Assembly (NCBI GenBank): GCA_030651475.1
Contig: JAUSEW010000021.1
Coordinates: 1,898 to 65,897 of the forward strand
Origin: Candidatus Levyibacteriota bacterium
Lineage (GTDB): Bacteria > Patescibacteriota > Microgenomatia > Levybacterales > UBA12049
Length of the DNA: 64,000 nt
Direction: 5' to 3'
Shown: positions 187-37,800 of the stretch, piece after piece
Position numbering within the stretch: the stretch's first letter is position 1
How the letters are laid out: each line of letters opens with the position of its first letter
Position numbers and translations under genes: made by a program
Notes under the pieces: generated by a model
Database searches by the model: none
What the model was told of the DNA's origin: nothing
Seen by the model: the letters and a program-made list of their open reading frames with translations, nothing else

Positions 187-1908
187 ATGAGAAAAACTGC
201 CCTCTTATTTTTTGCTTTCTTTTTATTTCTCACTTTTCATTTCTCATCTCTCATTTCTCCAACATTTGCTCAAACCAAAGCTTCTCCTAGCGCAAATGTT
301 GAAGAAAATGTTCCCAATAATCTTCACAATTGGACGCAAACTGTGATGATTGAGGTAATGAGCGCACTAACCTGCCAGCTTGCGGGTGTTGACCCAATAA
401 ATTCCAAACAATCCTGTCTTGGAATTGATCAAGCAAGCGGAAAAATTGGATTTTTACCATCTCCTCAAACGGGAGGAGCAATTGGCTTTATGGGCAATAT
501 GATCGCAACACTTTATACACCTCCTCTTCATACCGGTGACTATTTCCGAGATCTTGCTTCAAACTTTGGCATAAACAAAAAGGCATACGCGGAAAGCGCG
601 GGAACGGGATTTCAGGGACTTACTCCTCTTATTGGTATTTGGTCTGCTTTTAGAAATATTGTCTATCTTTTCTTAGTAATAGTTTTTGTGGTTATCGGAC
701 TTGCTATCATGCTTAGAGTCAAAATTGATCCGCGGACTGTAATGACGATCCAAAACCAAATTCCCAAAATTATAATAGGAATACTTGTCGTTACTTTCTC
801 CTTCGCCATCGCAGGATTTTTAATTGATTTGATGTGGGTATCTATTTATTTGATATTCGGAATCTTCAGCGGAATTCCAGGTGTAGATGTTGGCAATCTT
901 AATCCTGCTGCTATTCAAGGACAAAACGCCTTACAAGCTGTAGGATTTGATGTTTTTAAAATAACCAGCGATGCATCTGGAGGAATAAAAGACATGATTG
1001 GATCTTTTCTTGGAATTCAAGCTGGTCCAGGATTTATCTTCAATCCCCTTGCCATTATTTGGGACATTGGAGACCCAAAACGCACTGGTAATATCATTAA
1101 CTGGCTTATTGACGGCATCAGTTCTAGCGCTGGTATTGCAGCATTCCTTAATGTAGCTAAGATCCCAATCGTTAACTCTGCAATTCCCGGAATACAAGAA
1201 ATTTTTGGAATTGGTCAAACTGCAGCAAAAACAGCTGTTGGATCCGCATTCTCTCTAAGCGTATTCTCAGGCACAGAGTTTTTGCTTAGAACTGGACTAC
1301 CATGGATTCTTGCATTCTTAATAATTTTTATCGCACTTCTGACTGCTTTATTCAGACTTTGGCTTGCACTAATTATGGCTTATGTTCATATTTTGATTGA
1401 TGTTGTTCTGGCGCCTTTTTGGATTATCGGCGGCATCGTCCCGGGAAGTCCGATTAGTCTTAGCGGATGGATACGGGATCTCGTTGCAAATTTAGCTGCA
1501 TTTCCTGCAGTAATCGGAATGTTTATGCTGGGAAAAGTGTTTATGGAAGCTTTTGGAAAATGTCCGGCAACAAACCCAAATTGTACAGCAGACAATTTTG
1601 TCCCTCCTCTTATAGGAAATCCCGGAGATCCAAGCCTAATTGGATCCCTAATTGGTCTTGGTATTATTCTAATGACTCCAAATGTCGTAAATATGCTGAA
1701 AGCCGCTCTCAAAGCACCAAAGATTGACACTGGCGGAATCGGCAAGGCATTTATGCCAGGCTTGGCTGTACCTGGACGGACAGTTGGCGGAATAGCAGGA
1801 CTCGCATTAGGTACAGCATACGAAAAAGGAGCTCTTGAGAAAGGGTTACCAGCAGGAGAAAGAGCACCTCTTGGAAAATTCCTTAGATCATTTGGATTTA
1901 TGAGATAA
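187..1908 (+). CDS. Polytopic membrane protein, TrbL/VirB6-like (T4SS inner-membrane component) candidate
   Basis: N-terminal signal peptide (MRKTALLFFAFFLFLTFHFSSLISPTFAQ). A ~130-aa soluble segment is followed by at least six hydrophobic helices and a Gly-rich C-terminus. It sits in the T4SS-like cluster with VirB4 and pilins. The family assignment is inference from topology and context. Confidence 0.5.
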   Translation: MRKTALLFFAFFLFLTFHFSSLISPTFAQTKASPSANVEENVPNNLHNWTQTVMIEVMSALTCQLAGVDPINSKQSCLGIDQASGKIGFLPSPQTGGAIGFMGNMIATLYTPPLHTGDYFRDLASNFGINKKAYAESAGTGFQGLTPLIGIWSAFRNIVYLFLVIVFVVIGLAIMLRVKIDPRTVMTIQNQIPKIIIGILVVTFSFAIAGFLIDLMWVSIYLIFGIFSGIPGVDVGNLNPAAIQGQNALQAVGFDVFKITSDASGGIKDMIGSFLGIQAGPGFIFNPLAIIWDIGDPKRTGNIINWLIDGISSSAGIAAFLNVAKIPIVNSAIPGIQEIFGIGQTAAKTAVGSAFSLSVFSGTEFLLRTGLPWILAFLIIFIALLTALFRLWLALIMAYVHILIDVVLAPFWIIGGIVPGSPISLSGWIRDLVANLAAFPAVIGMFMLGKVFMEAFGKCPATNPNCTADNFVPPLIGNPGDPSLIGSLIGLGIILMTPNVVNMLKAALKAPKIDTGGIGKAFMPGLAVPGRTVGGIAGLALGTAYEKGALEKGLPAGERAPLGKFLRSFGFMR

Positions 1909-1914
1909 AATAAT

Positions 1915-4900
1915 CTACTTACTGTCTTTAAAGCTGGATTTTCCTATCATGTAAGTCTCTCCAATAGCTGATAACAATAAATAAAGAAGCAATCTAAATC
2001 CAAATCTTTTCGCAGTATCCCCGGCATTAACCTCTAAGAGATCTTCTAGATCATTGTAGAATTTATGCGATTTCTTTTCGTCTTTTTCAAGTTCTTCTCC
2101 CCACTCTTTAATTTTGTATTTTTTAAAGTCGTCCTCGGATGAATACTTTTTGGCTTCTTCCATATACTCTTCCGACAAGTCACTTTCTAAAAATGCTTTC
2201 GTTTTTTCTCGCATGTCTTCCCTTACTTTACTGATACTAGAAGACAGATATCCACGCAGATGATCAAGGTGCCCCCTTAATTCATCCCTGCTCATTGCCT
2301 TAGCTTGAGGTCCAAAGATTCTTTGAACATCAGATATCGAAACTCTACCCAAAGAAGTAGTTCCAATTATGTCCCACACCATATCCACTTTTGAAAGATT
2401 TAGAAATGTTCCTATTGTATACCTCAAACATTCAGCTTGACCTCTTGCACCAAGCCCATTATAAGATCCCGCAGAAGTAGCAAATTTTATAGCTGCGCCT
2501 GTTTTCTTTTCTATATCTTCATCTCTAATAAACTCAAGTAAAGAGTTCCCAGCCGTAGCTGCATTGCCAGTGTCATTCCATGACCTTGCCAAAGTGTCGC
2601 CGCCGGCGCCGGCTTCTCCAATCATCTTAGAAAGAGGAACATATCCAAGCTTGGATACTCCAAGCTCATCAACGCTGTCAAATTTTTCATCCTCCAATTT
2701 ATCCAGCAAAATATCGTCGATTATAATTGACCTTGTATATATATCTGCAAACTCATTATCTACTAACAAATCGTCTACGAGTTTCTTGTTGAAAATATAT
2801 TCCTGCATTTTTTTAGACAATTTTGCCAACATCTCCCCGCTCCCATTCCCTTTTATGCTATCTACCATTTTTTTCTGCTCAGTAGTCAAATCAGACAAAT
2901 TAATCTGTGTTGGTGTCTGATTGCCTTTTCCATCTTTAAGATCGAACCCTTCTTGTCTTAACAATCCAATTATTGACCCGTATTTTATTTTGAACTTATC
3001 GTAAACCGTAAGATCCCTTCCTCGCCCTCCATCTTCGCTTTCAGGTCTGTTAGCTTCCTTTTCTGTGACTGTGAGATTTAATTCGGGATCTATCCCAACC
3101 ATTTCATCGTATAGCGCCTTGACCCTGTCTCCTTTCCTTTCCCTAAATAACCTAATTATTTCTTCAGGTCTATAATTCTTAATCTTTCCCCATATTCCTT
3201 CTCGGGTTTTCCTTGTTTTATCATTCCCCTTCTCATCTTTTAAGGAAAGTTGATCTTGTCCGGAAAGCCTTAGCCTCATAAATAGAGCGAAATCTTCAGC
3301 TCTTTTTTTTGCCAAAAATATTTTCCTTCCCTGATCGGATTTTAATTGCTGATATTCCTTGAGCTCCTCCTTATTTAACAGCTCTTTATAAGGTTTTCCC
3401 TGAAAGGTCGAAGCTTCAAATCTTTGCTCCAATGCCTGAATTACTCCCTCTATGCGCCACCCAGAAGAGAAAAAGTCAGGAACAGCAAAGAGGTCTCTAA
3501 AAAGTCTTTTTCCCAAATCTATCTTTTGCTGTCTGGTAAGTTCTTTCCCGCTCTCTCCTTGAATCTTCTTTTGCTCTTTTAGATAGGTCTCCGCAATATC
3601 CAACTTTATTCTGTCAACAAATTCTTCCTGCTCAGGACTGTACATATCAAATTTCCCAAACAGCAACTCCTCCATATTGTAGACATTCAGCGGCCCTATT
3701 GGATCTGAGCGATAGCGACCGCCGTCTTTAAGTAAATATTTTCCCCTTGAAACTATAACGCCCATTCTTTGAGAAGAAACAAAAACATCATAAGCTGTTC
3801 TTACTATTCTAGTAATATCTCCATTTACTTTTTTTATCCTTTTTATCCTACCCAATCTTTCTAATTTCTTATTCGCCTCTGCCCTCTCGACATCTGTTAG
3901 TTTCCCAGCCAACGCCTCCCCTATTGTCTTTTCATCCCTCTTGATCTTTAAATCCGTCATCTCCTCATCTCGGGTTGCTGATATGAAATCAGCTTGATAC
4001 TCGGGCTTTTTCGCTATATTGCTTAGGTCATCAAAGCCTCCTTTTCCATTTTTTGCCAACTCCAACTGCTCCTCAATCAATGCTTTTTGTACTTTTAATG
4101 CGTCTTCAAGCATGACATGGTGCCTTTTGTTACTCCAAAGCCTAGTTCCTTCCAATAAATCTTGAAATCTGTTAAACATTGCCCCTACTTTACCTTGCTC
4201 CAATGCCATTCCCAATAATAGACCGTGTGCTCTAAGTTGCCCTGCCGCTCCCTTAACTTGCTCTAGGTCTTTGTACCCAATCGCCGTTCTCATTTGTAAA
4301 AGATGTAGGCGAACAGTCGACTCAGCGATAAAGGACTTTAAGTGCTCCGGATTAGAAGCATTAATAAGATCAATTGCATAAGATATTTTGTTTTGCGTAT
4401 TTTGAATCAGCGGTGAGCTTAGTTCCTGCCCCTCTTCGGCCAGCGCGTATACATGATCAAACTGCCCATTCAGCCATTCCATTGGCGTTGTCATAAGCGC
4501 ATCCATCTCCTCTTTCATAAGAGATAAGCCAAATCTGTAGGTTATATCCTGCTTTCCCTGAAATTTCGCCTGCGCCCTTTCCCCAATCTCTTTTTCCTCA
4601 ATTAGTCTTTTCTTAATTCTAGCTATGGCAATCTGCTTTTCGGCAGGATTAACACCTACGAGCTTACTGATGCTATTCAAAGCATCCAGGAACACATTCA
4701 AAGAAGGCTGTACTCCCACGTCAAGCGCATTATTCATTGCTTCCATTTCTGCAACAATTGCAGGATCACTAATTACTGCTTTATCAGCGGCATCTTCTGC
4801 TCCGGCAGGTGACACAGGAGGGGCTGGAGATTCTTCTGCACCAGGAGCATCTGCTCCCCCCATAATTGGACCAAGTCCTCTTTTGATCATTTCCCTTTTA

Positions 4901-5172
4901 ACATACTCCTCCTCAAAAGTAGGAGTTTTCCCTTTATTTGCTTCTTCCCAAGCTTTTCTAGCCACAGTTTGTCTTTCCGCAGAAACAGGTTTTTTCATGC
5001 CTGATCTTGAAGCTTGAGGGGCTTCGAAATTTGTTGGTTGTGAATTAGGAGGCGTATCGGATTTTCCTTCCATAAAAATCTTTCCATCCTTAGAATACCC
5101 TTCTCGTGCTTGTGTTGTCAACTCACGAGTTGATGCTGAGTTTTGTCGAAGCATCAAATCAAATTCTTTCAT
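1915..5172 (-). CDS. Large (1085 aa) charged/coiled-coil-rich hypothetical protein with a C-terminal hydrophobic tail anchor
   Basis: Long uninterrupted ORF, rich in K/E/D/R, with no N-terminal signal peptide. The last ~25 residues form a hydrophobic segment (FRLLLYLLLSAIGETYMI). It lies in an apparent operon with the AAA ATPase upstream. I recognise no motif. Confidence 0.55.
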   Translation of the reverse strand: MKEFDLMLRQNSASTRELTTQAREGYSKDGKIFMEGKSDTPPNSQPTNFEAPQASRSGMKKPVSAERQTVARKAWEEANKGKTPTFEEEYVKREMIKRGLGPIMGGADAPGAEESPAPPVSPAGAEDAADKAVISDPAIVAEMEAMNNALDVGVQPSLNVFLDALNSISKLVGVNPAEKQIAIARIKKRLIEEKEIGERAQAKFQGKQDITYRFGLSLMKEEMDALMTTPMEWLNGQFDHVYALAEEGQELSSPLIQNTQNKISYAIDLINASNPEHLKSFIAESTVRLHLLQMRTAIGYKDLEQVKGAAGQLRAHGLLLGMALEQGKVGAMFNRFQDLLEGTRLWSNKRHHVMLEDALKVQKALIEEQLELAKNGKGGFDDLSNIAKKPEYQADFISATRDEEMTDLKIKRDEKTIGEALAGKLTDVERAEANKKLERLGRIKRIKKVNGDITRIVRTAYDVFVSSQRMGVIVSRGKYLLKDGGRYRSDPIGPLNVYNMEELLFGKFDMYSPEQEEFVDRIKLDIAETYLKEQKKIQGESGKELTRQQKIDLGKRLFRDLFAVPDFFSSGWRIEGVIQALEQRFEASTFQGKPYKELLNKEELKEYQQLKSDQGRKIFLAKKRAEDFALFMRLRLSGQDQLSLKDEKGNDKTRKTREGIWGKIKNYRPEEIIRLFRERKGDRVKALYDEMVGIDPELNLTVTEKEANRPESEDGGRGRDLTVYDKFKIKYGSIIGLLRQEGFDLKDGKGNQTPTQINLSDLTTEQKKMVDSIKGNGSGEMLAKLSKKMQEYIFNKKLVDDLLVDNEFADIYTRSIIIDDILLDKLEDEKFDSVDELGVSKLGYVPLSKMIGEAGAGGDTLARSWNDTGNAATAGNSLLEFIRDEDIEKKTGAAIKFATSAGSYNGLGARGQAECLRYTIGTFLNLSKVDMVWDIIGTTSLGRVSISDVQRIFGPQAKAMSRDELRGHLDHLRGYLSSSISKVREDMREKTKAFLESDLSEEYMEEAKKYSSEDDFKKYKIKEWGEELEKDEKKSHKFYNDLEDLLEVNAGDTAKRFGFRLLLYLLLSAIGETYMIGKSSFKDSK

Positions 5173-5266
5173 ACGCCCGCAGTTTACCCCTTAAACATCA
5201 ATAAATCTTGACATTTCAACCTGACATTTACTAGACAGCAGAAATTAAGCAATAGGAGACTGAATT

Positions 5267-6427
5267 CTAGATGAAGTCAAAGAAATTTTCCGTAGTAATG
5301 AGTTTTACCTTTGTGCTATATTGTTTCGTAAAAGAGACCGCTCCCCGGCTGATGCGGCCGTCTGAATATTTAAACTCGTACGCGGCAAGTTTTTGACTTG
5401 GAAGGGCTTCTATGTAATCTACCTCTGCCCCGCCGTAACTTCTCCAGAAATATAAAGAAACAGGTTTTGCCTGATTTGCAAACTTTTTCATGCGTTCTAT
5501 GAAAAGGAAGTTTTCCCATAAAAAACCGACATCTCTGCGAATTGCGACAGGATTAAAATCTCCGATAAGAGCATTTCGTATACCAAGATCGGAAAAATAT
5601 ATTTTATAGTTTCTTCCTATTTCACGTCTTGGATTTTTAGAAAATGGATGCACGCGAACTATAACGAACGCTTTTTCAAGAATATCTAAATACGATACGA
5701 CTGTTTTTCTGTCAATTTTAAGCCGTGTTGCCAGCTCGTTTTCATTTACTTCCGATCCTACTTGGTAGGCAAGAGCTTTTGCGAGATCCTTTACCGCTTG
5801 TGAGTTTCTAATTCTTTGAAACGATAGAATATCTGCAAACAGGTAGCTTTCTACAATTTTCCTAAGCATAAGCTCTTTGTTCTCGGGATGATTCTCTAAA
5901 TAAATCTCGGGATAAAATCCATACAAAAGGGTTTGCGGCAAGAGAGACTGAGCATATTCTTTCTGTAAAATTTTATTTTGGGAATTCGCTGAATAAGACA
6001 AGACTTCACTAAAAGAAAGAGGAAAAAGAGTAAAGTCAATATATCTTCCCGTTAGGGCATCACTCATTTTATTTTTTAACTCAAAACTCGATGAGCCCGT
6101 AACGATAATCGTATTGTTTGGAAAATTGTCGTAGAGTATCTTGAGGGTTAGACCCGGATTCTCAAGTCTTTGCGCTTCGTCAATTAGAAGAGCTTGAGTG
6201 TTTTTCAAAAGTTTTTCAAGTAAAACTTTGGATGTGGTATTCACAGCGTTTCTCTCCTCATCACTGTCGCAATTAAGATAAAGAGTTTTCTTGCCCGATT
6301 CGGCTAATTTCTGCTGTATCTTTTTTATAATGGTTGTTTTGCCTACTTGCCGCGCACCAAGTATAAGAATAATTTTCTTAAGTTCCAGGCTCTTTAAAAT
6401 AGCTTCTTCCATTAATCTTGGGATCAT
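5267..6427 (-). CDS. AAA+ ATPase (COG1373 / DUF4143-type)
   Basis: Walker A ILGARQVGKTTI near the N-terminus, Walker B-like LLIDEAQRL and a ~390-aa length typical of this archaeal-type ATPase family. Confidence 0.75.
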   Translation of the reverse strand: MIPRLMEEAILKSLELKKIILILGARQVGKTTIIKKIQQKLAESGKKTLYLNCDSDEERNAVNTTSKVLLEKLLKNTQALLIDEAQRLENPGLTLKILYDNFPNNTIIVTGSSSFELKNKMSDALTGRYIDFTLFPLSFSEVLSYSANSQNKILQKEYAQSLLPQTLLYGFYPEIYLENHPENKELMLRKIVESYLFADILSFQRIRNSQAVKDLAKALAYQVGSEVNENELATRLKIDRKTVVSYLDILEKAFVIVRVHPFSKNPRREIGRNYKIYFSDLGIRNALIGDFNPVAIRRDVGFLWENFLFIERMKKFANQAKPVSLYFWRSYGGAEVDYIEALPSQKLAAYEFKYSDGRISRGAVSFTKQYSTKVKLITTENFFDFI

Positions 6428-6523
6428 GTTCCTATTATTAGCACTAATTTAGGAATTTGTCAAGTGCTAGTAAACAAATACCGTATACTTGCAAAAATTC
6501 CCAAAACTGTCTACGATTGAAGA

Positions 6524-7768
6524 GTGAGAAAGGTAATATTTTTATTTTCAAGCCTACTTATTTCCTTCTTATTCTTCGTATCGTGGAATAATAAAGCTTA
6601 TGCGGAGAATTGCCCTCTAAGTATTGATCGAACAACGCCATTCCCTCTTGATTTTAATGAGGACATAGTAATTAAAGGTAATTGTTTCACTAGCGGAAAA
6701 ACATACACTATCTTAGGATATCCTTCAAAGATAGACCCTTCTCCTGGAGAGTATTTTAAGTACTCCATAGATACAAGACAATATTCAGATCCAAATAGTA
6801 TTACCGCACGACTCAATCTGACAAAACCTACCTTTTACCCAATAGGTAGCCTTAATCCTGGACCGTGGATTATAAAAGTCTGCACTCAAGATGTTCTTCC
6901 CCAATGTGGAGAAACAGGTAGAATCGTAGGGACTATTAATATTAACGTTTCTGCAGTTTCTGCAGTTTCTGCACCTACTCCAACACCAATTCCATCGAAT
7001 TTACCAAAAGTTGCTATGTTTCCTTCACGATGTAAGTATCAATCTGATGAATCTTTAGAATTGACGCTCTCTGATCTTTTACCTAAAACTACATATCGTT
7101 GGTGGTGGTGGCAACCAGGAATCTTTCAAGGAGGAGATATAGCCGCAAGAGCATTTACTACATATCAACAGAACGGAACAGTGGCAAAAGCAACGATAGA
7201 AGGGAAAGAAACGCAACCAACTGGTAGCCGCACGCTTTGTGTTGATGTTGAAGGATTTGGCGTTGCTCGTTGTATTCCTGGTTCACAAAATTCAGCAACG
7301 CTACAATTTACGTTTGGTCCGCCGCCAGTTGATGGTTCTGCTTGTGTCACAACAGCAGCAGGAGGACAAGTTCCGCAGAATATACCTACTCCAACGCCCA
7401 TCATCCCAACACCTATATGCGCGAAGGGTGCCATAACTCCCATAAAAGAATCTGTAAATTCAACAAATGTTATTGGCTATACTTGTTCTGCCGTAGATAC
7501 TGGACTTGGCATTGATATCAAAACTAATCCCGAAGATTTGGTGAAGAGTGTTTTTGGAATAATTTTAAGCCTTTCCGGCGGAATTGCTTTAATTCTAATT
7601 ATTATTTCCGGCTATCAACTTATCTTTTCCCAGGGAAATCCCGAACAGGTTAAAGCAGCCCAAGAACAGCTGACTTCCGCAGTTGTCGGGCTTTTGTTTA
7701 TAATATTCTCATTGGTAATTCTACAAATAATCGGAGCAGACATTTTGAAAATCCCAGGCTTTAAGTGA
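6524..7768 (+). CDS. Secreted protein with C-terminal VirB2/TrbC-like pilin domain (pilin-ectodomain fusion)
   Basis: GTG start and a signal peptide. A ~330-aa Cys-containing N-terminal domain carries PTPTPIP linkers and a W-rich patch. The C-terminal ~70 aa (GIILSLSGGIALILIIISGYQLIFSQGNPEQVKAAQEQLTSAVVGLLFIIFSLVILQII) aligns with the four downstream pilin paralogs. Confidence 0.6.
   Translation: MRKVIFLFSSLLISFLFFVSWNNKAYAENCPLSIDRTTPFPLDFNEDIVIKGNCFTSGKTYTILGYPSKIDPSPGEYFKYSIDTRQYSDPNSITARLNLTKPTFYPIGSLNPGPWIIKVCTQDVLPQCGETGRIVGTININVSAVSAVSAPTPTPIPSNLPKVAMFPSRCKYQSDESLELTLSDLLPKTTYRWWWWQPGIFQGGDIAARAFTTYQQNGTVAKATIEGKETQPTGSRTLCVDVEGFGVARCIPGSQNSATLQFTFGPPPVDGSACVTTAAGGQVPQNIPTPTPIIPTPICAKGAITPIKESVNSTNVIGYTCSAVDTGLGIDIKTNPEDLVKSVFGIILSLSGGIALILIIISGYQLIFSQGNPEQVKAAQEQLTSAVVGLLFIIFSLVILQIIGADILKIPGFK
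6947..6973 (+). repeat. In-frame tandem repeat (GTTTCTGCA)x3 encoding VSAVSAVSA inside ORF 6524-7768
   Basis: Three exact 9-bp units seen directly. Confidence 0.9.
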
Positions 7769-7775
7769 CAACTAT

Positions 7776-7799
7776 AGCGTTTAGTTAGGGAGCGTTTAG
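7776..7799. repeat. Two direct copies of AGCGTTTAG (left arm of the inverted repeat flanking the four-helix-bundle gene)
   Basis: AGCGTTTAG lies at 7776-7784 and 7791-7799. Its reverse complement CTAAACGCT occurs twice on the other side of the gene (8189-8197 and 8212-8220). Confidence 0.7.
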
Positions 7800-7830
7800 C
7801 GGATAGTTGGGGAGCTCTTAATGTCTAGTT

Positions 7831-8199
7831 ATGGCGTATATAGCAACTTACAAAGAATTAATTGTATGGAAAAAGGCAATTGAATTAGTAAAAGAAATTT
7901 ATCTTTTGACAGAAAAATTTCCCAGATCGGAGATTTACGGAATAATTTCCCAAATGCGGCGAGCGGCTGTATCTATCCCTTCAAATATTGCCGAAGGTTA
8001 CGGGAGAAAATCCCCCAAAGAATATGCGCAATTTTATTCCATAGCCTACGGTTCTGGTCTTGAGCTTGAAACACAACTTATTATTAGCAAAGACCTTAAG
8101 TTCGTTAAATTACAAGATTTTACAAAAAGCGATAATCTATTAACAGAGGTCTTAAAAATGTTACGCTCAATGTTGTATACTATGAGAACTAAACGCTAG
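7831..8199 (+). CDS. Four-helix-bundle protein (23S rRNA intervening-sequence protein family, PF05635-like)
   Basis: 122 aa. The sequence ...ELIVWKKAIELVKEIYLLTEKFPRSEIYGIISQMRRAAVSIPSNIAEGYGRKSPKEYAQFYSIAYGSGLELETQL... matches the characteristic family motif. Confidence 0.85.
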   Translation: MAYIATYKELIVWKKAIELVKEIYLLTEKFPRSEIYGIISQMRRAAVSIPSNIAEGYGRKSPKEYAQFYSIAYGSGLELETQLIISKDLKFVKLQDFTKSDNLLTEVLKMLRSMLYTMRTKR

Positions 8200-8220
8200 A
8201 CGCTTAGAAAACTAAACGCT
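8189..8220. repeat. Two copies of CTAAACGCT (right arm, reverse complement of the left arm)
   Basis: Seen directly at 8189-8197 (overlapping the stop codon) and 8212-8220. Together with 7776-7799 they bracket a 445-bp cassette. Confidence 0.7.
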
Positions 8221-8224
8221 AATT

Positions 8225-8569
8225 ATGAAGCTTGCACAATTTTCCTTACCAGGTTACCCAGATATAAAAGTTCCGAGCGATATACAAAATTTATCAGGAG
8301 GAGCTTATGGCGGCAGTTTAATTACAACAGCCCTGGCTATCCTTTTTGTTTTTGGAATTGTTTTGACAATTATTCTTCTAATCTATTCCGGCATCCAATG
8401 GGTCACATCCGAAGGAGACAAACAGAAGATACAGGCCGCACGATCAAGGCTTATTTATACGATAGTTGGATTTTTGATAATTGCCGGTTCACTTGTTATT
8501 GTAAGTGTAATCGTAAGATTACTTGGCGGAGATCCTAAATTTTTCTTAAATACCTCAAATACCCCTTGA
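8225..8569 (+). CDS. VirB2/TrbC-like T4SS pilin paralog
   Basis: Small protein with a TM helix followed by IYSGIQWVTSEGDKQKIQAARSRLIYTIVGFLIIAGSLVIV. The motif is shared with ORFs 8602, 9068, 9578 and the C-terminus of 6524. Confidence 0.6.
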   Translation: MKLAQFSLPGYPDIKVPSDIQNLSGGAYGGSLITTALAILFVFGIVLTIILLIYSGIQWVTSEGDKQKIQAARSRLIYTIVGFLIIAGSLVIVSVIVRLLGGDPKFFLNTSNTP

Positions 8570-8601
8570 CAAATAAATAGAATCTGCTTATTATAAGGTC
8601 A

Positions 8602-9012
8602 ATGAGGAAATCTTTAGGCTTTATTAGCGCTTTATCATTATATGCTAGCTCTGCCTTTTTAGCTATAGCACAAGGAGCAGCACCTAAGGGAGATGTTTCA
8701 ATACCGATAGTAGTTCCAACTGGCGCCCTTCCCTTAGACCTAGATATCGGTAAATTACCTCAATTTATCATAACCCTTCTTTTTATAGTTGGTGTTATTA
8801 TTGCTATCGCATTTTTAATTTACGGAGGTATTAAATGGGTTATGTCAGGCGGAGACAAAGCAGGAGTTGAGGCAGCCAGAAATCATATTGTTGCAGCCAT
8901 TATCGGGTTGGTAATAATTGCAGCAGCCTTCTTTATTATTCAGGTTGTTTTTAGACTTCTTGGAACATCTCTCGACATAAGCACGCTAACCATTCCCACC
9001 CTTAAACAATAA
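8602..9012 (+). CDS. VirB2/TrbC-like T4SS pilin paralog
   Basis: Signal peptide, then LIYGGIKWVMSGGDKAGVEAARNHIVAAIIGLVIIAAAFFII. It is near-identical at nucleotide level to the next paralog over ~110 bp. Confidence 0.6.
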   Translation: MRKSLGFISALSLYASSAFLAIAQGAAPKGDVSIPIVVPTGALPLDLDIGKLPQFIITLLFIVGVIIAIAFLIYGGIKWVMSGGDKAGVEAARNHIVAAIIGLVIIAAAFFIIQVVFRLLGTSLDISTLTIPTLKQ

Positions 9013-9067
9013 GAGCGCATCTTGATTTTAATTGATTTTCGTTTCTTGATTTGCTAAAGTAGTATTT

Positions 9068-9568
9068 GTGATACCGCTACCTATTATTCCTCCTCCTGGA
9101 AGCATTATTAATGCATCTTTGGAGAATATTCCCCAATTTATTATCCAGCTTATTTTTGTAATCGGAATTATTATTGCTATAGTTTTCTTAATTTATGGCG
9201 GTATTAAATGGGTACTATCGGGTGGAGATAAAACTGCTGTTGAAGCAGCAAGAAATCATATTGTTGCAGCAATTGTCGGGTTGGTAATAATTTTAGGATC
9301 CTTCCTTATCTTCTCTTTGGTTTTCCAGCTTCTCGGAGCGCAAAACCCGATTCTTGGTCGATCTTTGTGCATCCCTACCCTTAAAGATCCATTCTGTTTC
9401 CCTGCAGTTGCACCAACCCCTTCGGCAGGCTCAGGGCAAGCCGGAACTTCCTCTGTTAACCCATCTTTAAGCCCTACGCCTGCGAAGTTTCCGACAGTTT
9501 CCGGAGGATCGAATAATTCCTCTTCTTCAAAACAAAATCAAACTGACAAAACCAAAGGAGGATTATAA
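9068..9568 (+). CDS. VirB2/TrbC-like T4SS pilin paralog with a Pro/Ser-rich C-terminal tail
   Basis: GTG start. LIYGGIKWVLSGGDKTAVEAARNHIVAAIVGLVIILGSFLIF is followed by a low-complexity PTPSAGSGQAGTSS... tail. Confidence 0.55.
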   Translation: MIPLPIIPPPGSIINASLENIPQFIIQLIFVIGIIIAIVFLIYGGIKWVLSGGDKTAVEAARNHIVAAIVGLVIILGSFLIFSLVFQLLGAQNPILGRSLCIPTLKDPFCFPAVAPTPSAGSGQAGTSSVNPSLSPTPAKFPTVSGGSNNSSSSKQNQTDKTKGGL

Positions 9569-9577
9569 TACTTAAGT

Positions 9578-9889
9578 ATGACTCTTAAGGAATGCTTTAC
9601 TGGCGTTGATAAGGTAGGAACCCTTAACTGCATCCCTTATCTTTTCGAAAATGTTGTTACCGCAGCATTTCTTTTCGCCGGCATAATTGCGCTCATTTTT
9701 ATCATTCTTTCCGGGATTAAATTTTTAATGTCAGGCGGAGATCCAAAACAGCTCGAAGGAGCCAAAAATACCTTGACTTATGCTATCTTGGGATTTATTT
9801 TAATTCTTCTTTCTTTCGCAATCCTAAATTTTATCTCCGGAATTACCGGTGTCCCCTGCATTAAAGAATTCGGTTTTGGCAATTGCTAA
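9578..9889 (+). CDS. VirB2/TrbC-like T4SS pilin paralog
   Basis: ILSGIKFLMSGGDPKQLEGAKNTLTYAILGFILILLSFAIL. The C-terminus carries two Cys residues. Confidence 0.55.
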   Translation: MTLKECFTGVDKVGTLNCIPYLFENVVTAAFLFAGIIALIFIILSGIKFLMSGGDPKQLEGAKNTLTYAILGFILILLSFAILNFISGITGVPCIKEFGFGNC

Positions 9890-9952
9890 TACTACTTTGA
9901 CCTATTTTGATAATCTTGCAATGATATTTTTCACGTTATATGCTAGTCCTAT

Positions 9953-11173
9953 ATGGAGAATCATCCTATTCCCCAGGACGTAACTGGATTTCAGTTCAAG
10001 CTGATTGGGGATATGACCATCAAACAATTCGCCTATCTTATAACCGGCGTAATTATGGCGTGGATATTTTTCAGTCTGTCGATAACGTACTTTATTAAAA
10101 TTCCCTTTGCTTTTTTCTTTGGGCTATTTGGAGTTAGTCTGGCGTTTCTACCAATTGAAGGAAGACCAATGGATGTAATGATTGGAAATTTCCTCAAAGC
10201 TCTTTCTTCCCCAACCCAATACGTTTATAAAAAAACAGGCGTTCCTGTCTGGTCTCAAATACCTATTTATAGAAAAACTTTGCAGGGTCCAAGTTTGCAA
10301 ACCGTGAAACCGCAGGCAAGAGTTTTCCTGCAAACATCAATGAACATTCCCAAAAATGATTTAGACAAAAAAGAATTGAGTTTTTTCCAGTCTCTTTTTG
10401 GTCAGCAAAACGGTTCTTTCCCGCAAGCTCCTCAAAACACTCAAGCCGGATCTCCGGTTATAATAACTATGCACGATGATTCCAAGAAAGAAGAGCCGAA
10501 AAAAGAACCCGTAGTTGCTAATACGCAAACGGAGCCTATCGCAGAAAATGTTCTTCAGGAAAAAGCAGCTCTTTTGGAACGAGAGCTTCAAGCCGCCAAA
10601 GAGCAAGAAGCAAATTTACAAAAACAAGCTGTCCCAACCCAAGCTATTCACGAAAAAACCTTGGAATTGGAGAAGCAGCTTGCAGAGGTTCTTACGCAGA
10701 AAGAGCAGCTTACCGGCCAATTGATAAACTTACAGCAAAAACTGGATCAGCAAAAAAAGCAATTTTTTACTCCGGGAGTTGTAACTTCTCCAAAGATAGA
10801 AACCAAAAATGTAAAAAGTATCCCTGGACCCATGGGCAAAAGCGTTGGTCTTCCCATAACACCAGATGTTCCAAACCTTATAACCGGAATTCTCAAAAAT
10901 CCGAGAAATATGCCATTGCCTAATATTCTGGTTGAGGTAAAAGACAGCGAGGGAAATCCTGTCCGGGCATTTAAAACCAATTCCTTAGGACAATTTGCAT
11001 CAGCTACTCCTCTTCTGAACGGCACCTATACAATGGAATTTGAAGATCCCAAAGGAGAAAATAAATTTGACTTTATAGAAATAAAAGCCAATGGTGAAAT
11101 AATCTTACCAATAGAAGTTATCTCTATTGACACACGGGAAGAATTAAGGAAATCTCTTTTCGGAGAAGTATAG
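9953..11173 (+). CDS. PrgI/VirB3-like membrane protein with long coiled-coil and C-terminal beta-rich extension
   Basis: The N-terminus FQFKLIGDMTIKQFAYLITGVIMAWIFF... plus two TM helices resembles PrgI-family (VirB3-like) proteins. It is followed by a Q/E/K/L-rich coiled coil (LQAAKEQEANLQKQ...LINLQQKLDQQKKQ). It lies immediately upstream of VirB4. Confidence 0.45.
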   Translation: MENHPIPQDVTGFQFKLIGDMTIKQFAYLITGVIMAWIFFSLSITYFIKIPFAFFFGLFGVSLAFLPIEGRPMDVMIGNFLKALSSPTQYVYKKTGVPVWSQIPIYRKTLQGPSLQTVKPQARVFLQTSMNIPKNDLDKKELSFFQSLFGQQNGSFPQAPQNTQAGSPVIITMHDDSKKEEPKKEPVVANTQTEPIAENVLQEKAALLERELQAAKEQEANLQKQAVPTQAIHEKTLELEKQLAEVLTQKEQLTGQLINLQQKLDQQKKQFFTPGVVTSPKIETKNVKSIPGPMGKSVGLPITPDVPNLITGILKNPRNMPLPNILVEVKDSEGNPVRAFKTNSLGQFASATPLLNGTYTMEFEDPKGENKFDFIEIKANGEIILPIEVISIDTREELRKSLFGEV

Positions 11174-11176
11174 TTT

Positions 11177-11812
11177 ATGAAAAAATCTGCCCAAAAGACA
11201 CAGGCAACAACGCAAAAATTCATAGAGATACAGGATATTTCGGACAATATCGCCATACTTCCTTACGGCAATGCCTGTCTTATCATTGAAGTTATTGCTA
11301 CCAATTTCTCTCTTTTTTCCAAAGAAGAGCAGAATGCTAAAATTTTTGCCTATTCAACTTTACTCAATTCACTTTCGTTTCCTATCCAAATATTTATTTT
11401 AAGTAAAAGAGTTGACATATCGTCATATATTAAACTGTTGGACTGGGAAGAGAAGAAAACACAAAATGAGAAATTAGCCCATCAAATAGGCCTTTATAAA
11501 GAATTTGTCCGGGAGCTGGTTAAGGTAAACACTGTTTTGGATAAAAAGTTTTACATAGTTATTCCCTACTCATATCTTGAAAAAGGCCCAATTCAGCAAG
11601 GATCTTTTGCCGCTCAAGCCAAAACAGCTCTTCTAAGCAAAGCCCAAGTATTGCATTCCCAGCTCGCAACACTTAATCTTCGCGCCAGAACTCTTGCCAA
11701 AGAAGAATTAATAAATCTTTATTACGAAATTTATAATGCGGACTTGGGCACATCTTCAAATCCGCAAGAAAATGTAAGTACCGTATTTGTTAAAGGAGCA
11801 AAAACAATATGA
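11177..11812 (+). CDS. Probable N-terminal (membrane-proximal) domain of VirB4/TrbE encoded as a separate ORF
   Basis: 211-aa soluble protein whose stop overlaps the VirB4 ATPase start (ATGA at 11809-11812). The combined length (211+604 aa) matches full-length VirB4 (~800 aa). Inference from size and context, not from a recognised motif. Confidence 0.4.
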   Translation: MKKSAQKTQATTQKFIEIQDISDNIAILPYGNACLIIEVIATNFSLFSKEEQNAKIFAYSTLLNSLSFPIQIFILSKRVDISSYIKLLDWEEKKTQNEKLAHQIGLYKEFVRELVKVNTVLDKKFYIVIPYSYLEKGPIQQGSFAAQAKTALLSKAQVLHSQLATLNLRARTLAKEELINLYYEIYNADLGTSSNPQENVSTVFVKGAKTI

Positions 11813-13623
11813 CACCTGTGAATAACCTTAACCCAAGAAATCTTTCTTTGGAATCTTTGGAAAAAGGGATAAATTCTTTGGCTGATATTATCGCTCCTTC
11901 TTCCGTTGAAATAGATTTTAATTTCATCAGAGTGGGAGAAAGGTTTTATAAAACCTTTTTTGTTGTCGGGTATCCCCGATTTGTTTCTTCAAACTGGCTT
12001 TCTCCGGTTATCGATTTTGATCATTCTTTAAATATTTCGATGTTCATTTATCCGACATCTTCTTCTGATGTTTTAAACGATCTTCGGCGGAAAATCGCAG
12101 AAATGGAAGCATCTATTTCTTCCGAGGTTGAGTCGGGACGATCTCCTGATCCCAAAATAGAAGCAGCCTTAGAAGATGCACTTGGACTTCAACAGGAACT
12201 TGCAAGAGGAGTTGAAAGGTTTTTTCAATTTAGTTTATACATTACTATTTCTGCCGATAGCTTAAAAGATTTGGACGAAGCAGGGAAAAAACTTAGCTCA
12301 ACACTTTCTTCTCTTCTTATAGTTCCAAAAATCGCAACTCTTCAAATGGAAGACGGGTTCAAATCTTCTGTCCCGCTTGGCATAGATAAGCTTTATATAA
12401 CCAGAAATATGGACACAACCTCTTTGGCCTCAACTTTTCCCTTTACTTCTGCCATGCTAACTCAAGACAAAGGAGTTTTGTATGGCATAAATCAGCAAAA
12501 TGGATCTTTGATTATTTTTGACAGATTCTCTTTGGAAAATGCCAATGAGGTTGTGCTGGGAAAATCCGGATCGGGAAAATCTTTCTTGATAAAACTGGAG
12601 GCAATGCGGCAATTTATGTTTGGGACAGAAATAATAATAATCGATCCCGAAGGAGAATACGAAAGCCTGACAAAAACTCTTGGCGGAGAATATGTCGCCT
12701 TTACAACATCTTCTCCCATTAAGATAAACCCGTTTGATCTTTCCGGATTATATGAAGAGGGAGAAAATGAACTCGGACTTAAAATACTATCGCTTCGCGG
12801 GCTTTTGAAAATTGCCCTTGGGGAAATGAATGCCGCGCAAGATGCGATACTGGACAGAGCTCTGGTTGAAACATACAAAAATAAAGGCATAACTACAGAT
12901 CCTGCAACGCAAAAAAAAGAGCCTCCCCTTATGGAAGATCTCTACAAAACGCTTTCCCAAATAAAAGATGACAGCTCCCATGACTTAACACTCCGTTTGG
13001 AAAAATTTATTAAGGGAAGCTTAAGCGGAATATTTAATCAGCAATCCAACTTTAATATCCAAAATCCTCTGACAATTTTCTCTCTTAAAGGGCTTGAAGG
13101 AGAACTAATGCCTATTGCCATGCACATAGTTTTGGATTTTGTCTGGACAAGGGTCAGAAAAGATCTCAAAAAAAGACTGCTTATTTTGGATGAGGCTTGG
13201 TACATAATGAAATATCAAGATTCCGCGTCTTTTGTGTACGGGGTTGCAAAAAGGGCCAGAAAATATTATCTTGCTCTTACCACAATAACGCAGGATGTTC
13301 AGGATTTCCTTACAACCGATTACGGAAAGGCAATTTTGTCTAACTCGTCTATTCAAATTCTTCTTAAACAAAGTCCTACCGAAATCGATTCTATCGCAAA
13401 AGTTTTCTATTTTTCCTTAAGAGAAAAGGAATATTTACTTGCGTCAGGCGTTGGGGAAGGATTGTTTTTCGCAGGTCTTGCCCATGTTGGGCTAAAAGTT
13501 GTTGCGGCACCATTTGAAAAAGAAATAGTCACGTCAAATCCCGAAGATCTCAAGAAAATGCAGGAAGAAATATCGCAAAAAACAACCGAGCCACCAATTG
13601 TTAATCAAACAAAGAGCGTCTAA
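11809..13623 (+). CDS. virB4: VirB4/TrbE-family conjugative/T4SS ATPase
   Basis: Walker A VLGKSGSGKSF, Walker B LLILDEAWYIM and an overall VirB4 C-terminal ATPase architecture. Confidence 0.8.
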   Translation: MTPVNNLNPRNLSLESLEKGINSLADIIAPSSVEIDFNFIRVGERFYKTFFVVGYPRFVSSNWLSPVIDFDHSLNISMFIYPTSSSDVLNDLRRKIAEMEASISSEVESGRSPDPKIEAALEDALGLQQELARGVERFFQFSLYITISADSLKDLDEAGKKLSSTLSSLLIVPKIATLQMEDGFKSSVPLGIDKLYITRNMDTTSLASTFPFTSAMLTQDKGVLYGINQQNGSLIIFDRFSLENANEVVLGKSGSGKSFLIKLEAMRQFMFGTEIIIIDPEGEYESLTKTLGGEYVAFTTSSPIKINPFDLSGLYEEGENELGLKILSLRGLLKIALGEMNAAQDAILDRALVETYKNKGITTDPATQKKEPPLMEDLYKTLSQIKDDSSHDLTLRLEKFIKGSLSGIFNQQSNFNIQNPLTIFSLKGLEGELMPIAMHIVLDFVWTRVRKDLKKRLLILDEAWYIMKYQDSASFVYGVAKRARKYYLALTTITQDVQDFLTTDYGKAILSNSSIQILLKQSPTEIDSIAKVFYFSLREKEYLLASGVGEGLFFAGLAHVGLKVVAAPFEKEIVTSNPEDLKKMQEEISQKTTEPPIVNQTKSV

Positions 13624-13640
13624 TTTATTTAATAAAAGAT

Positions 13641-13898
13641 ATGCCCGAACAAGAAGAAAAAAAACGAGGACATACTGGATTTATCAACGGAATCTTTAAT
13701 ACCCCAGGTACAGTAAAAACTGTATCGAGGTTAGGAAAAGTTATATTTAGTGCAGGTCCCGAAGTATGGATTGTTGTTGGGACTATTGTCGGAGTAGCCT
13801 TGCTCACGCTTCTAGTTTTATTTACTGTTACAGCATCCGTACCCATTCCCCAAACCCCTCCTACCCCCACAATCACTCTTCCCACACCAACCCCCTAA
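13641..13898 (+). CDS. Small membrane protein (one TM helix, Pro/Thr-rich tail), hypothetical
   Basis: 85 aa with TM segment WIVVGTIVGVALLTLLVLFTV, co-directional with and 17 bp downstream of virB4. An alternative antisense ORF 13625-13885 was rejected. Confidence 0.3.
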   Translation: MPEQEEKKRGHTGFINGIFNTPGTVKTVSRLGKVIFSAGPEVWIVVGTIVGVALLTLLVLFTVTASVPIPQTPPTPTITLPTPTP

Positions 13899-15025
13899 GC
13901 TTGAACCCTGATTGGCATTATTAGGTGAAGGAATGAATTGTCATTTTCAATTTTAAAAACCCCGGGATTAAGAGGGCCTGTCATTTCAAAAGCAATTCCT
14001 TCTTCTTCTACGTTAGACAAAATATCCAAAAGATAACGGGCGTTAAAGGCAATTTCATTTTCCTCCCCTTGCGTTTTTGCTTCTACCTCAATTGTGTTTT
14101 CCCCAACGGATGGTGTATTTGCGGAAACCACAACTTTATTCTTCAAAACGGAAATCTTAACTATACCCGCTGTTTCCTTGGAAAAAACATAACATGCTCT
14201 AACCGCCCGCAACATTTCCTCGCGGTTAAAAGAGGCCTTGGTTGAAAAATCTTGAGGAATTATCTTTTTATAATCAGGAAATTCCGCCTCGATAAGTCTT
14301 CCCACTAGCGTTATTTCCTCTTGGCAGAACATAATTTGGTTTTTCTCTTTTGAAACATAAACTTCCACATCTTCTCCATCTTTGCTAATCGAAATAATCT
14401 CCCTCACTACTCTTGCAGGAACAAGCATCGATACGCCTTCCTTAATCTTTTTAGTTTTTTCTTCTTTGGCGATATTCTTTTTTAGAGAAAGTCTATATCC
14501 ATCTGTTGCAACGAATAAAAATCCCAAACCGTCTTCTCCTACAGCGCTCTCCACCAGAACCCCTGATAGGGCTGTTCTTGATTGATCTTGACCCGCCGCA
14601 AAAACCACTTTCCCAAAATCATTAACTATATCCTCTTTTTTTATCATCATTACCTTTTCCCCTTTTTCTTCATATATTTTCGGGAACTCTTCCGAGGGAA
14701 TAGTTTGAAAAAGTGTTTTTATTTTTTCTCCCTTTAGTTCCAATCCTTCTTTTGTTGTGTTTAATGAAATTTTTCCTGAAGGTATGTTGTTCAAAAGCTC
14801 CAGGAAGGTTTTTGCGGGAACGGTTATCGATCCCTCCTCTTCTATTTTCGCCTGGATTTGTACTTCTATTCCTATTTCAAGGTCAGTAGCGCTAATATAT
14901 AGTTTCCCCTCCTTAGCTTTTATTAAAAAATTGGAAAGTATCGGTAACTGCGATCTTGTTGACGTAGCATGGCTTACCAGTCCTAATTTATTTTGCAAGT
15001 TTTCAGAAAGCAGTTGAACGATCAT
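13895..15025 (-). CDS. dnaN: DNA polymerase III beta subunit (sliding clamp)
   Basis: 376 aa. The N-terminus MIVQLLSENLQNKLGLVSHATSTRSQLPILSNFLI... is typical of DnaN. It sits immediately downstream of dnaA. Confidence 0.9.
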   Translation of the reverse strand: MIVQLLSENLQNKLGLVSHATSTRSQLPILSNFLIKAKEGKLYISATDLEIGIEVQIQAKIEEEGSITVPAKTFLELLNNIPSGKISLNTTKEGLELKGEKIKTLFQTIPSEEFPKIYEEKGEKVMMIKKEDIVNDFGKVVFAAGQDQSRTALSGVLVESAVGEDGLGFLFVATDGYRLSLKKNIAKEEKTKKIKEGVSMLVPARVVREIISISKDGEDVEVYVSKEKNQIMFCQEEITLVGRLIEAEFPDYKKIIPQDFSTKASFNREEMLRAVRACYVFSKETAGIVKISVLKNKVVVSANTPSVGENTIEVEAKTQGEENEIAFNARYLLDILSNVEEEGIAFEMTGPLNPGVFKIENDNSFLHLIMPIRVQA

Positions 15026-15108: not shown

Positions 15109-15117
15109 TGTGGATAA
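15109..15117. promoter_or_regulatory. Perfect DnaA box (TGTGGATAA = reverse complement of TTATCCACA) in the dnaA-dnaN intergenic region
   Basis: Exact 9-mer seen at 15109-15117. The surrounding region is AT-rich. Confidence 0.7.
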
Positions 15118-16562: not shown

Positions 16563-16571
16563 TGTGGATAA
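16563..16571. promoter_or_regulatory. Perfect DnaA box (TGTGGATAA) upstream of dnaA, in the candidate oriC region
   Basis: Exact 9-mer at 16563-16571, between the dnaA start (16527) and rpmH (16660). An AT-rich tract at 16600-16659 could be a DNA-unwinding element. Confidence 0.7.
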
Positions 16572-20027: not shown

Positions 20028-20450
20028 ATGGAAGAGATTAATATTTTTACCGACGGCGGATCAAGAGGTAATCCCGGGCCCGCGGGAATTGGCGTTTATA
20101 TAACTGACAAAAATAGCAAAAAAATTGCTTCAGTCGGAAAGAGAATTGGCAATGCGACCAATAATGTTGCAGAATATAAGGCAGTTTTGGAAGCGTTATC
20201 ATGGATTTTAGCAAATAAAGAAACTTTAGACAGTAATCCAAAAATTAATTTTTTCCTTGACTCCAAGCTTGTTTATTCTCAAATCGCAGGTTTATTTAAA
20301 ATAAAAAATCCATTTCTAAGAACACTTCTGTATGAAGTAAGAGAAAAAGAAATTCAAGTCAAATCACAAATTTTTTATAATCATATCCCAAGAGAAAAAA
20401 ATACTAAGGCAGACGAAATGGTGAATAAAGCGCTAGACAACCTAATCTAA
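20028..20450 (+). CDS. rnhA: Ribonuclease HI-like
   Basis: MEEINIFTDGGSRGNPGPAGIGVYI...AEYKAVLEAL...YNHIPREKNTKADEM carries the RNase H D-E-D-D catalytic pattern. Confidence 0.85.
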   Translation: MEEINIFTDGGSRGNPGPAGIGVYITDKNSKKIASVGKRIGNATNNVAEYKAVLEALSWILANKETLDSNPKINFFLDSKLVYSQIAGLFKIKNPFLRTLLYEVREKEIQVKSQIFYNHIPREKNTKADEMVNKALDNLI

Positions 20451-37668: not shown

Positions 37669-37800
37669 TAATAATAGCATTATTATAAAATTAAAACTGC
37701 GCAACAAAACCGGCACTTGACCCATTCGGCTTGGCTCAGGCCGTTCGAGGCTCTGAGGAGCCCTCAGGCTCTGAACGAGGTCTTGACAAATCGTCTCAAA

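Follow-up and report, generated by a model that had tools for sequence, protein, structure and literature searches.

The 64-kb stretch of DNA analysed here (the window) comes from a metagenome-assembled genome (MAG) of Candidatus Levybacteria (Microgenomatia), a lineage of the Patescibacteria or candidate phyla radiation (CPR). At one end of it lies a gene cluster resembling a type IV secretion system (T4SS), in which five pilin-like genes are followed by genes for a PrgI/VirB3-like protein, a TrsD-like protein and the ATPase VirB4, and which runs up to the replication genes dnaN and dnaA (Table 1). A first-pass annotation, made from the sequence alone, had described a T4SS-like cluster that carries VirB2-like pilin paralogues and adjoins the replication genes. 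This description, here for a CPR bacterium whose genome is reduced, is supported by our analysis and fits published work on such bacteria (PMC12102498, PMC10633639). For comparison, a scan with one genome per species gave 80 related loci, nearly all from Levybacteria or other Microgenomates, whose VirB4 proteins are 59 to 96% identical; L001 is the locus of the closest relative, and other L-numbers denote the loci of other relatives. Protein families were assigned by scanning about 45 window proteins, with open reading frames (ORFs) below about 140 aa covered incompletely, and the score cut-offs were 26.6 bits for PF18895, 27 bits for PF12666 and 325 bits for NF045971.

Table 1. Features of the T4SS-like cluster and of its surroundings in the window
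Feature	Position	Strand	Evidence and remarks
Polytopic membrane protein, 573 aa (candidate divergent VirB6 equivalent)	187..1908	+	no family match
1085-aa all-alpha protein	1915..5172	-	no family match; lineage-specific
AAA_14 + DUF4143 ATPase	5267..6427	-	Pfam, 127 and 117 bits
Class-1 pilin, 414 aa (pilA)	6524..7768	+	PF18895, 34.9 bits, residues 337-403
23S_rRNA_IVP/Avd-like four-helix-bundle gene	7831..8199	+	PF05635, 134.6 bits; TIGR02436
Class-2 pilin, 114 aa	8225..8569	+	PF18895, 28.8 bits; two transmembrane helices
Class-3 pilin copy 1, 136 aa (pilC)	8602..9012	+	PF18895, 30.6 bits
Class-3 pilin copy 2, 166 aa (pilD)	9068..9568	+	PF18895, 32.6 bits
Class-4 pilin, 103 aa	9578..9889	+	PF18895, 39.2 bits; positional orthologues
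PrgI/VirB3-like protein, long C-terminal extension	9953..11173	+	PF12666, 29.8 bits
TrsD-like protein, 211 aa	11177..11812	+	NCBIfam matches below cut-off; fused to VirB4 in L046 and L055
VirB4 ATPase (MPF_FATA/CD1110 type), 604 aa	11809..13623	+	NF045971, 388 bits; P-loop_TraG, 102 bits
85-aa stump of wall-hydrolase gene	13641..13898	+	architecture like N-termini of relatives' hydrolase family
dnaN	13895..15025	-	Pfam; context, outside the machine
dnaA	15160..16527	-	Pfam; context, outside the machine
rpmH, rnpA, yidC	from 16564	+	
VirD4-like coupling-protein candidate, 790 aa	60742..63114	+	47 kb from virB4

The five-member pilin array recognized in the first-pass annotation is confirmed, since all five genes match the T4SS_pilin family PF18895 above its cut-off. 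The shared C-terminal module on which that recognition was based also holds. The aligned modules form a two-helix unit (transmembrane (TM) helix, loop, TM helix) with nine invariant columns; the TM pair is present in all five proteins, and the motif in the loop, which contains Lys/Arg residues, is conserved. The annotation had itself considered that the module might be a generic membrane anchor occurring in unrelated proteins. A hidden Markov model (HMM) of the module, used in a six-frame scan of the window, detected exactly five ORFs (E values of 1e-23 to 1e-28) and no further match even at E ≤ 10. Of its 189 matches in related loci (1.28 Mb), every one lay upstream of virB4 on the same strand. 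This confinement to the region upstream of virB4 shows that the module is no generic membrane anchor. The TrbC and CagC profiles gave only marginal matches (E values of 0.05 to 0.09), and hhalign aligned the five modules with VirB2 of Agrobacterium tumefaciens in the correct register, without significance (2.9% probability).

The number of pilin genes, which had been called notable, is ordinary for this kind of locus. Among the 46 loci with at least 7 kb of sequence upstream of virB4, four pilins are the commonest number (25 loci), and the remainder have five (six loci), none (ten loci) or one to three (five loci). In the 25 loci with exactly four pilins, the modules at positions 1 to 4 are 60, 42, 51 and 49% identical, respectively, to those at the same position in other genomes, whereas paralogues within a genome are 27 to 45% identical. 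Pilins at the same position are thus more alike across genomes than the paralogues of one genome are to each other, and we therefore regard the positions as distinct subunit classes. The class-1 pilin is always the first of the array and the class-4 pilin always the last. Classes 2 and 3 are less sharply set apart, being 44.7% alike within a genome and 39.9% alike between genomes. The window has five genes and four classes: pilC is nearest to the position-3 pilins of the relatives (50%), and both pilC and pilD belong to class 3. An insertion of approximately 100 nt has broken the class-2 pilin of L001 (L001:6135-6604) into two ORFs (97 and 65 aa), which points to a pseudogene or to a fault of the assembly.

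The relationship between pilC and pilD had been taken as a sign of recent duplication or gene conversion on the basis of an identity of about 90% over about 110 nt. The measured value for the best window of 110 nt is 82.7%, and 88% is reached only over the best 60 nt, with no longer identical tracts. Within the module, the synonymous divergence (dS) is 0.89 and the nonsynonymous divergence (dN) is 0.17, and 31 of the 60 mismatches are at third codon positions. Both copies are already present in L001, where the orthologues are 66% and 86% identical to those of the window, compared with an amino acid identity of 58% between the two paralogues. Because of a dS of about 0.9, the third-position mismatches and the greater closeness of orthologues than of paralogues, the class-3 pair is an old, lineage-specific duplication that predates the split from L001, and recent gene conversion was rejected.

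A role in variation has been proposed for the VirB2 paralogues of Bartonella and Anaplasma, and the pilE/pilS system of Neisseria provides another comparison. The array in the window had been read as a pilin-variation locus; its members would then be interchangeable variants which arise by recent duplication or conversion and serve antigenic or host-range variation. Although the 58% identity of pilC and pilD slightly exceeds the maximum reported for such arrays (54%, with a mean of 25%, in 441 arrays of 2 to 11 pilin genes found especially in Microgenomatia and Saccharimonadia; PMC12102498), the greater likeness of classes 2 and 3 within a genome than between genomes points in the same direction, and pilA and pilC are the fastest-evolving pilins compared with L001, the positional orthology over 25 genomes, the age of the duplicate and the fact that all five copies are full-length ORFs, none of them silent or truncated, speak against the proposal. 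We consider it improbable. Variation of the Neisseria pilE/pilS type was also rejected, given an identity of at most 88% over 60 nt, the dS of 0.89, the positional orthology and the lack of partial copies. On these sequence comparisons, the array is a group of distinct subunit classes that are old, in which a single lineage-specific duplication has occurred, and not a recombining variation cassette.

The class-1 pilin differs from the others in its architecture, which is predicted to comprise a signal peptide, an ectodomain of about 300 aa and then the T4SS_pilin module at the C-terminus. Compared with L001, its dN/dS is 0.37, against 0.21 for pilC, 0.10 to 0.15 for the other pilins and 0.04 to 0.09 for PrgI, TrsD, VirB4 and DnaN. 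In the class-1 family (362 matches), the module is kept at 60 to 88% identity but the ectodomain is exchanged, in occasional cases for an fn3 or another beta-sandwich domain. The swapping of the ectodomain in front of a conserved module fits a role of the ectodomain in contact with the host. Among the small pilins, the product of pilC has a signal-like segment at its N-terminus, and that of pilD has a C-terminal tail rich in Ser, Pro and Thr.

These features also bear on the possibility that the two-helix proteins never form a filament and remain in the membrane as translocon subunits, as in the integrated conjugative elements (ICEs) of Mycoplasma. All five proteins do match the NCBIfam model for the Mbov_0395 family pilin-like conjugal transfer protein (E values of 4e-9 to 1e-4, below the cut-off), and Gram-positive T4SSs are generally without pili according to the literature; on the other hand, exposure at the surface is suggested by the ectodomain of class 1 and by extracellular tails rich in Cys and Pro, and tubular structures have been seen at the parasite-host interface of a cultivated relative (bioRxiv 10.64898/2026.06.21.733656). 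We regard such a membrane channel as unlikely.

Between pilA and the class-2 gene lies a 23S_rRNA_IVP/Avd-like gene which, together with the gene for the TrsD-like protein, had been overlooked in the first-pass annotation. It is present at the same place in L014, L027, L058 and L082 and absent there in L001. An IVP/Avd-like gene also occurs elsewhere in the cluster in L005, L008, L040 and L060. Its likeness to Avd prompted us to consider a diversity-generating retroelement. This was rejected: the mismatches between pilC and pilD are not biased towards adenine, and the window proteins scanned include no reverse transcriptase of this type, the only related observation being an RNase H protein at 20028-20450. 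A sigma-70-like site (TTGACA, 17 nt, TATTAT; 11 of 12 positions) at 8566-8594 ends 7 nt before the ATG of pilC; promoter and terminator scans of the region gave counts not above chance.

Downstream of the array, the identifications of the PrgI/VirB3-like protein and of VirB4 both stand, with matches above the cut-offs of PF12666 and of the NCBIfam family conju_CD1110 (NF045971), respectively. PrgI has TM segments at residues 26-44 and 50-68, and its gene is directly upstream of that for TrsD in nearly all loci. Its extension of about 300 aa is coiled-coil and low-complexity, with a weak match to the beta-sandwich-like CarboxypepD_reg at residues 310-366. The TrsD-like protein aligns to positions 94-284 of the VirB4_plasma model (2.7e-9) and to TrsD (6.8e-5), in both cases below the cut-off, and the 604-aa VirB4 aligns to positions 284-892 of the same Mycoplasma-ICE VirB4 model. 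The two genes overlap by 4 nt (ATGA), and in L046 and L055 they form a single ORF of 772 and 761 aa, respectively. The TrsD-like protein thus appears, from alignment and gene fusion, to be the split-off N-terminal domain of VirB4.

The adjacency to dnaN and dnaA is confirmed, with 271 bp between the stop of virB4 (13623) and that of dnaN (13895) and with dnaA 1.5 kb away. Perfect DnaA boxes at 15109-15117 and 16563-16571 flank dnaA, and the minimum of the cumulative GC skew is at 14-16 kb; dnaN and dnaA with these boxes are likely the neighbourhood of the replication origin, about 1.5 to 3 kb from virB4. The order of class-1 pilin, small pilins, PrgI, TrsD, VirB4, opposite-strand dnaN-dnaA and rpmH-rnpA is kept in the 80 loci, and dnaN is convergent with virB4 in every one of the 66 loci that extend far enough for the layout after virB4 to be read. 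The siting beside dnaN/dnaA is therefore a conserved trait of the lineage. The operon from pilins to virB4 (6524-13623) points at the probable origin and is head-on to the leftward fork, an orientation that is conserved.

VirB4 identity correlates with that of DnaA (r = 0.94) and of DnaN (r = 0.92). In 59 of 59 loci it exceeds both, and the mean identities are 70% for VirB4, 60% for DnaA and 52% for DnaN. That VirB4 tracks and exceeds the replication proteins argues for vertical descent under strong constraint, and the system would accordingly be vertically inherited and held under a constraint stronger than that on the replication initiator. These data weigh on the possibility that the cluster is the mating-pair formation (MPF) module of an ICE which came to lie near the origin by chance and still moves DNA. 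VirB4, PrgI and TrsD have homologues among the conjugation proteins of Firmicutes and Mycoplasma ICEs, and a gene for a VirD4-like ATPase is present at a distance of 47 kb; however, the position beside dnaN/dnaA is the same in 66 of 66 loci, VirB4 divergence follows that of DnaA and DnaN, the window proteins scanned included no relaxase or integrase within the cluster or its vicinity, and relaxases are known from only 103 Patescibacteria genomes (PMC12102498). An ICE is therefore very improbable.

No relaxase was found among the approximately 45 window proteins scanned, small ORFs being covered only in part, and the locus itself has neither a relaxase nor a coupling protein, the VirD4-like ATPase being encoded only far away. 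Considering that no relaxase was found among these proteins and that no coupling protein is encoded beside virB4, non-conjugative transport is most likely. Such transport might be directed inward, and the idea of uptake by these systems has been raised previously (PMC11665869). The machine would then work like the archaeal Ced system and ComB of Helicobacter pylori and import host DNA, RNA or nucleotides, which the cell is unable to make itself. The lack of a coupling protein and relaxase at the locus is compatible with this, VirB4 has a weak similarity to CedB (3.8e-15, below the cut-off), and a cultivated relative with tube-like structures is reported to feed on host RNA (bioRxiv 10.64898/2026.06.21.733656), but the cluster has no CedA-like or ComEC-linked component. 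The sequence gives no direction of transport. We consider import somewhat unlikely; it is a variant of the explanation preferred below and not an alternative structure. As for the VirD4-like candidate, it matches TrwB_AAD_bind (34.5 bits), T4SS-DNA_transf (25.8 bits) and DUF87, and its matches to NCBIfam TraD and CD1115 are below cut-off. Two ORFs without significant family match (59242-60300 and 60297-60734) precede it.

At the left edge of the cluster, the first-pass annotation had named a VirB6/TrbL-like protein. This assignment could not be reproduced by family searches, because neither the 573-aa protein nor eight of its homologues has a Pfam or NCBIfam match. A profile search of the Protein Data Bank sequences was empty, and hhalign against A. 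tumefaciens VirB6 gave a probability of 0.3%. At least five TM helices (six hydrophobic segments) are present in the protein, besides a signal/TM segment at the N-terminus and an ectodomain that contains Cys, and it is the only candidate for the polytopic protein (at least five TM helices) expected to be encoded with virB4. More than 1000 proteins belong to the family, and all are unnamed or annotated as hypothetical. The gene forms the left edge of the cluster in Levybacteria and is located directly between the pilins and PrgI in distant Microgenomates, a context which was also read on the contig of a homologue. An AlphaFold2 (AF2) model (pLDDT 70) gave only weak structural matches, of which the top-ranked was TrwI/VirB6, not significant. 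Because the top fold match is the very component expected from the gene context, and such a coincidence by chance is unlikely, we prefer the reading that the 573-aa protein is the VirB6 equivalent. From model and context this is plausible and quite probable, but unproven.

Two further statements on this part of the region had to be revised. The 1085-aa protein had been described as tail-anchored, and its C-terminus proved weakly hydrophobic, below the Kyte-Doolittle threshold of 1.6. The AAA ATPase ascribed to it is encoded by a separate gene and belongs to a family unrelated to T4SSs. The model of the 1085-aa protein is all-alpha with the first 126 residues disordered, and it has no informative structural neighbour. 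Its family has 21 homologues, all from close relatives and often on contigs which also carry homologues of the 573-aa protein; its membership of the system is uncertain, and it may be a scaffold, a substrate or unrelated. The same MAG encodes a second paralogue (P0130, 56% identical; Q7R31_01095) on a different contig. At the place of the AAA_14+DUF4143 ATPase, L001 has a copy with an identity of only 31%, and most relatives lack the gene. The ATPase is probably an unrelated insertion and no part of the T4SS.

On the other side of virB4, 52 of the 66 relatives have a gene on the + strand whose product begins with a charged N-terminus and continues with a single TM helix, a Pro/Thr linker and, at the C-terminus, a Peptidase_M23, Peptidase_M74, beta-lactamase/S11 or CHAP domain. 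Examples are L002:11915-13735, L012:11890-14967, L047:11885-15616 and L075:11810-14545. Functionally, this gene corresponds to VirB1. Only the anchor is left in the window (85 aa) and in L001 (87 aa). The 85-aa stump retains the charged N-terminus, the TM helix and the Pro/Thr tail, and its dN/dS compared with L001 is 0.61, which is almost neutral; no homologue of the hydrolase family was found elsewhere in the 64 kb. The reduction of the gene to a stump accounts for the unusually tight abutment of virB4 and dnaN in the window, where the spacer is 271 bp compared with a median of 2.35 kb in the relatives.

Taking these results together, we suggest, with a probability of roughly 80%, that the region is the chromosomal, vertically inherited and lineage-wide T4SS of Levybacteria, derived from MPF_FATA-type conjugation machines of monoderm bacteria. 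Its working can be proposed from homology. The split VirB4, consisting of the TrsD-like N-domain and the 604-aa ATPase in translational coupling, would dock at the membrane via PrgI/VirB3 and probably the 573-aa VirB6 equivalent and would extract the two-helix VirB2-like pilins from the membrane. The pilins could then stack into a short tube or pilus which crosses the wall and reaches the host cell, with the four old classes (class 3 duplicated) as different subunits of one structure and the fast-evolving, swappable ectodomain of about 300 aa on class 1 in contact with the host. The cargo would most likely be proteins or host-derived macromolecules passing across the epibiont-host interface, and the process would not be conjugation.

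Several observations weigh against this interpretation. A leader-like N-terminus with an extra hydrophobic segment is present in only two of the five pilins (those of 414 and 136 aa). No cluster protein has a Pfam or NCBIfam match to the VirB8, PrgL or TcpC families. The cluster contains no VirB1-like cell-wall hydrolase apart from the stump, and as the hydrolase is missing at its usual site, the assembly of the machine across the wall is left unexplained. The extension of PrgI would be cytoplasmic under the standard topology of VirB3, which is odd for a beta-sandwich-like domain.

T4SSs of this kind have been surveyed in Patescibacteria by Quinonero-Coronel et al. 2025 (Microb Genom; PMC12102498), who described a monophyletic clade of VirB4 related to MPF_FATA, with TrsD, PrgI and VirB6 near virB4 and VirB2-like pilins detected by PF18895. 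In that survey relaxases were few, and in Microgenomatia the systems were near dnaA, dnaN, rpmH and rnpA; VirB6 was scarce in Microgenomatia, where extreme divergence was suspected, and VirB8 was rarely found (PMC12102498). The locus in the window shares the VirB4 clade, TrsD and PrgI, the PF18895 array, the absence of a relaxase and the proximity to dnaA, and it differs in nothing fundamental. The four positional classes, the ectodomain-bearing class and the swapped hydrolase module after virB4 are without description there. In Southlakia epibionticum, Wang et al. 2023 (Cell) found the T4SS and the pilin array to be essential (PMC10633639; PMC12857230). The cluster of strain ML1 (SEML1_0006-0019) is likewise chromosomal and near the start of the genome, contains a pilin array, resembles Gram-positive conjugative T4SSs and has no recognizable coupling or relaxase protein. 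Unlike the window, however, it belongs to Saccharimonadia and has six pilins; its VirB6 can be detected by HMM, and its virB4 is followed by essential genes for peptidase and lysozyme, where the window has only the stump.

Among conjugation systems, those of MPF_FATA type in Firmicutes (VirB4 of CTn2 CD1110, TrsD of pGO1, PrgI of pCF10) share with the window a VirB4 that passes the CD1110 cut-off, PrgI and TrsD homologues and a monoderm architecture without outer-membrane core proteins. A relaxase, a coupling protein, the absence of VirB2-like pilins and a location on mobile elements, not beside dnaA, are their own. The Mycoplasma ICEs (Mbov_0395, the MMCAP2_0566 family, the Mbov_0397 VirB4) also have genes for small two-helix pilin-like proteins and for a larger module-bearing protein beside that for a VirB4 whose N-terminal region corresponds to TrsD. 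They are mobile elements of wall-less cells, and all matches of the window proteins to them are below the NCBIfam cut-offs. Agrobacterium VirB/D4 and R388 Trw follow a shared logic, with a two-helix VirB2 pilin, VirB3, VirB4 and polytopic VirB6, but are diderm systems with VirB7/9/10, VirB5, VirB11 and VirD4, and neither the window pilins nor the VirB6 candidate has a significant sequence similarity to the proteins of A. tumefaciens. The sub-threshold matches of the five pilins and of TrsD plus VirB4 to Mycoplasma ICEs hint at a monoderm origin of the pilins: such proteins may have arrived together with the monoderm system instead of being borrowed from diderm T4SSs. We regard this as a lead and not as a result.

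Outside the cluster and its replication-gene neighbours, the remainder of the window consists of ordinary chromosomal housekeeping genes, and neither an Rfam scan nor a tRNA scan of the window gave a match. Two Fic-domain genes lie within 7 kb of each other (30866-31888 and 37717-38874), the first of which is fused to a MerR-type helix-turn-helix.

The locus is real, conserved and biologically important, but it is typical, and its kind has already been described, since its headline features match those of PMC12102498 and of Wang et al. 2023. The additions made here are small, namely the positional classes, the swappable class-1 ectodomain, the candidate VirB6, and the modular hydrolase and its loss in the window. 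They lead to three linked proposals beyond the published surveys which, taken jointly, we put forward only tentatively. First, the T4SS filament of Levybacteria may consist of four ancient pilin classes with fixed positions, one of them with an adhesin-like ectodomain which close relatives exchange and which sets host specificity. Second, the 573-aa family could be the "missing" VirB6 of Microgenomatia. Third, the gene after virB4 might be a modular anchor with interchangeable hydrolase heads that has been dispensed with in some lineages, including that of the window.

Few systems are known to be essential to Patescibacteria in their epibiotic life, and the T4SS is one of them. The locus reveals no new principle; it is a clean and strongly conserved Levybacteria example, with a VirB4 more conserved than DnaA. 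It also offers handles for experiments: the four pilin classes, a swappable ectodomain that may determine host specificity, a VirB6 candidate for Microgenomatia, and natural variants without the wall-hydrolase gene.

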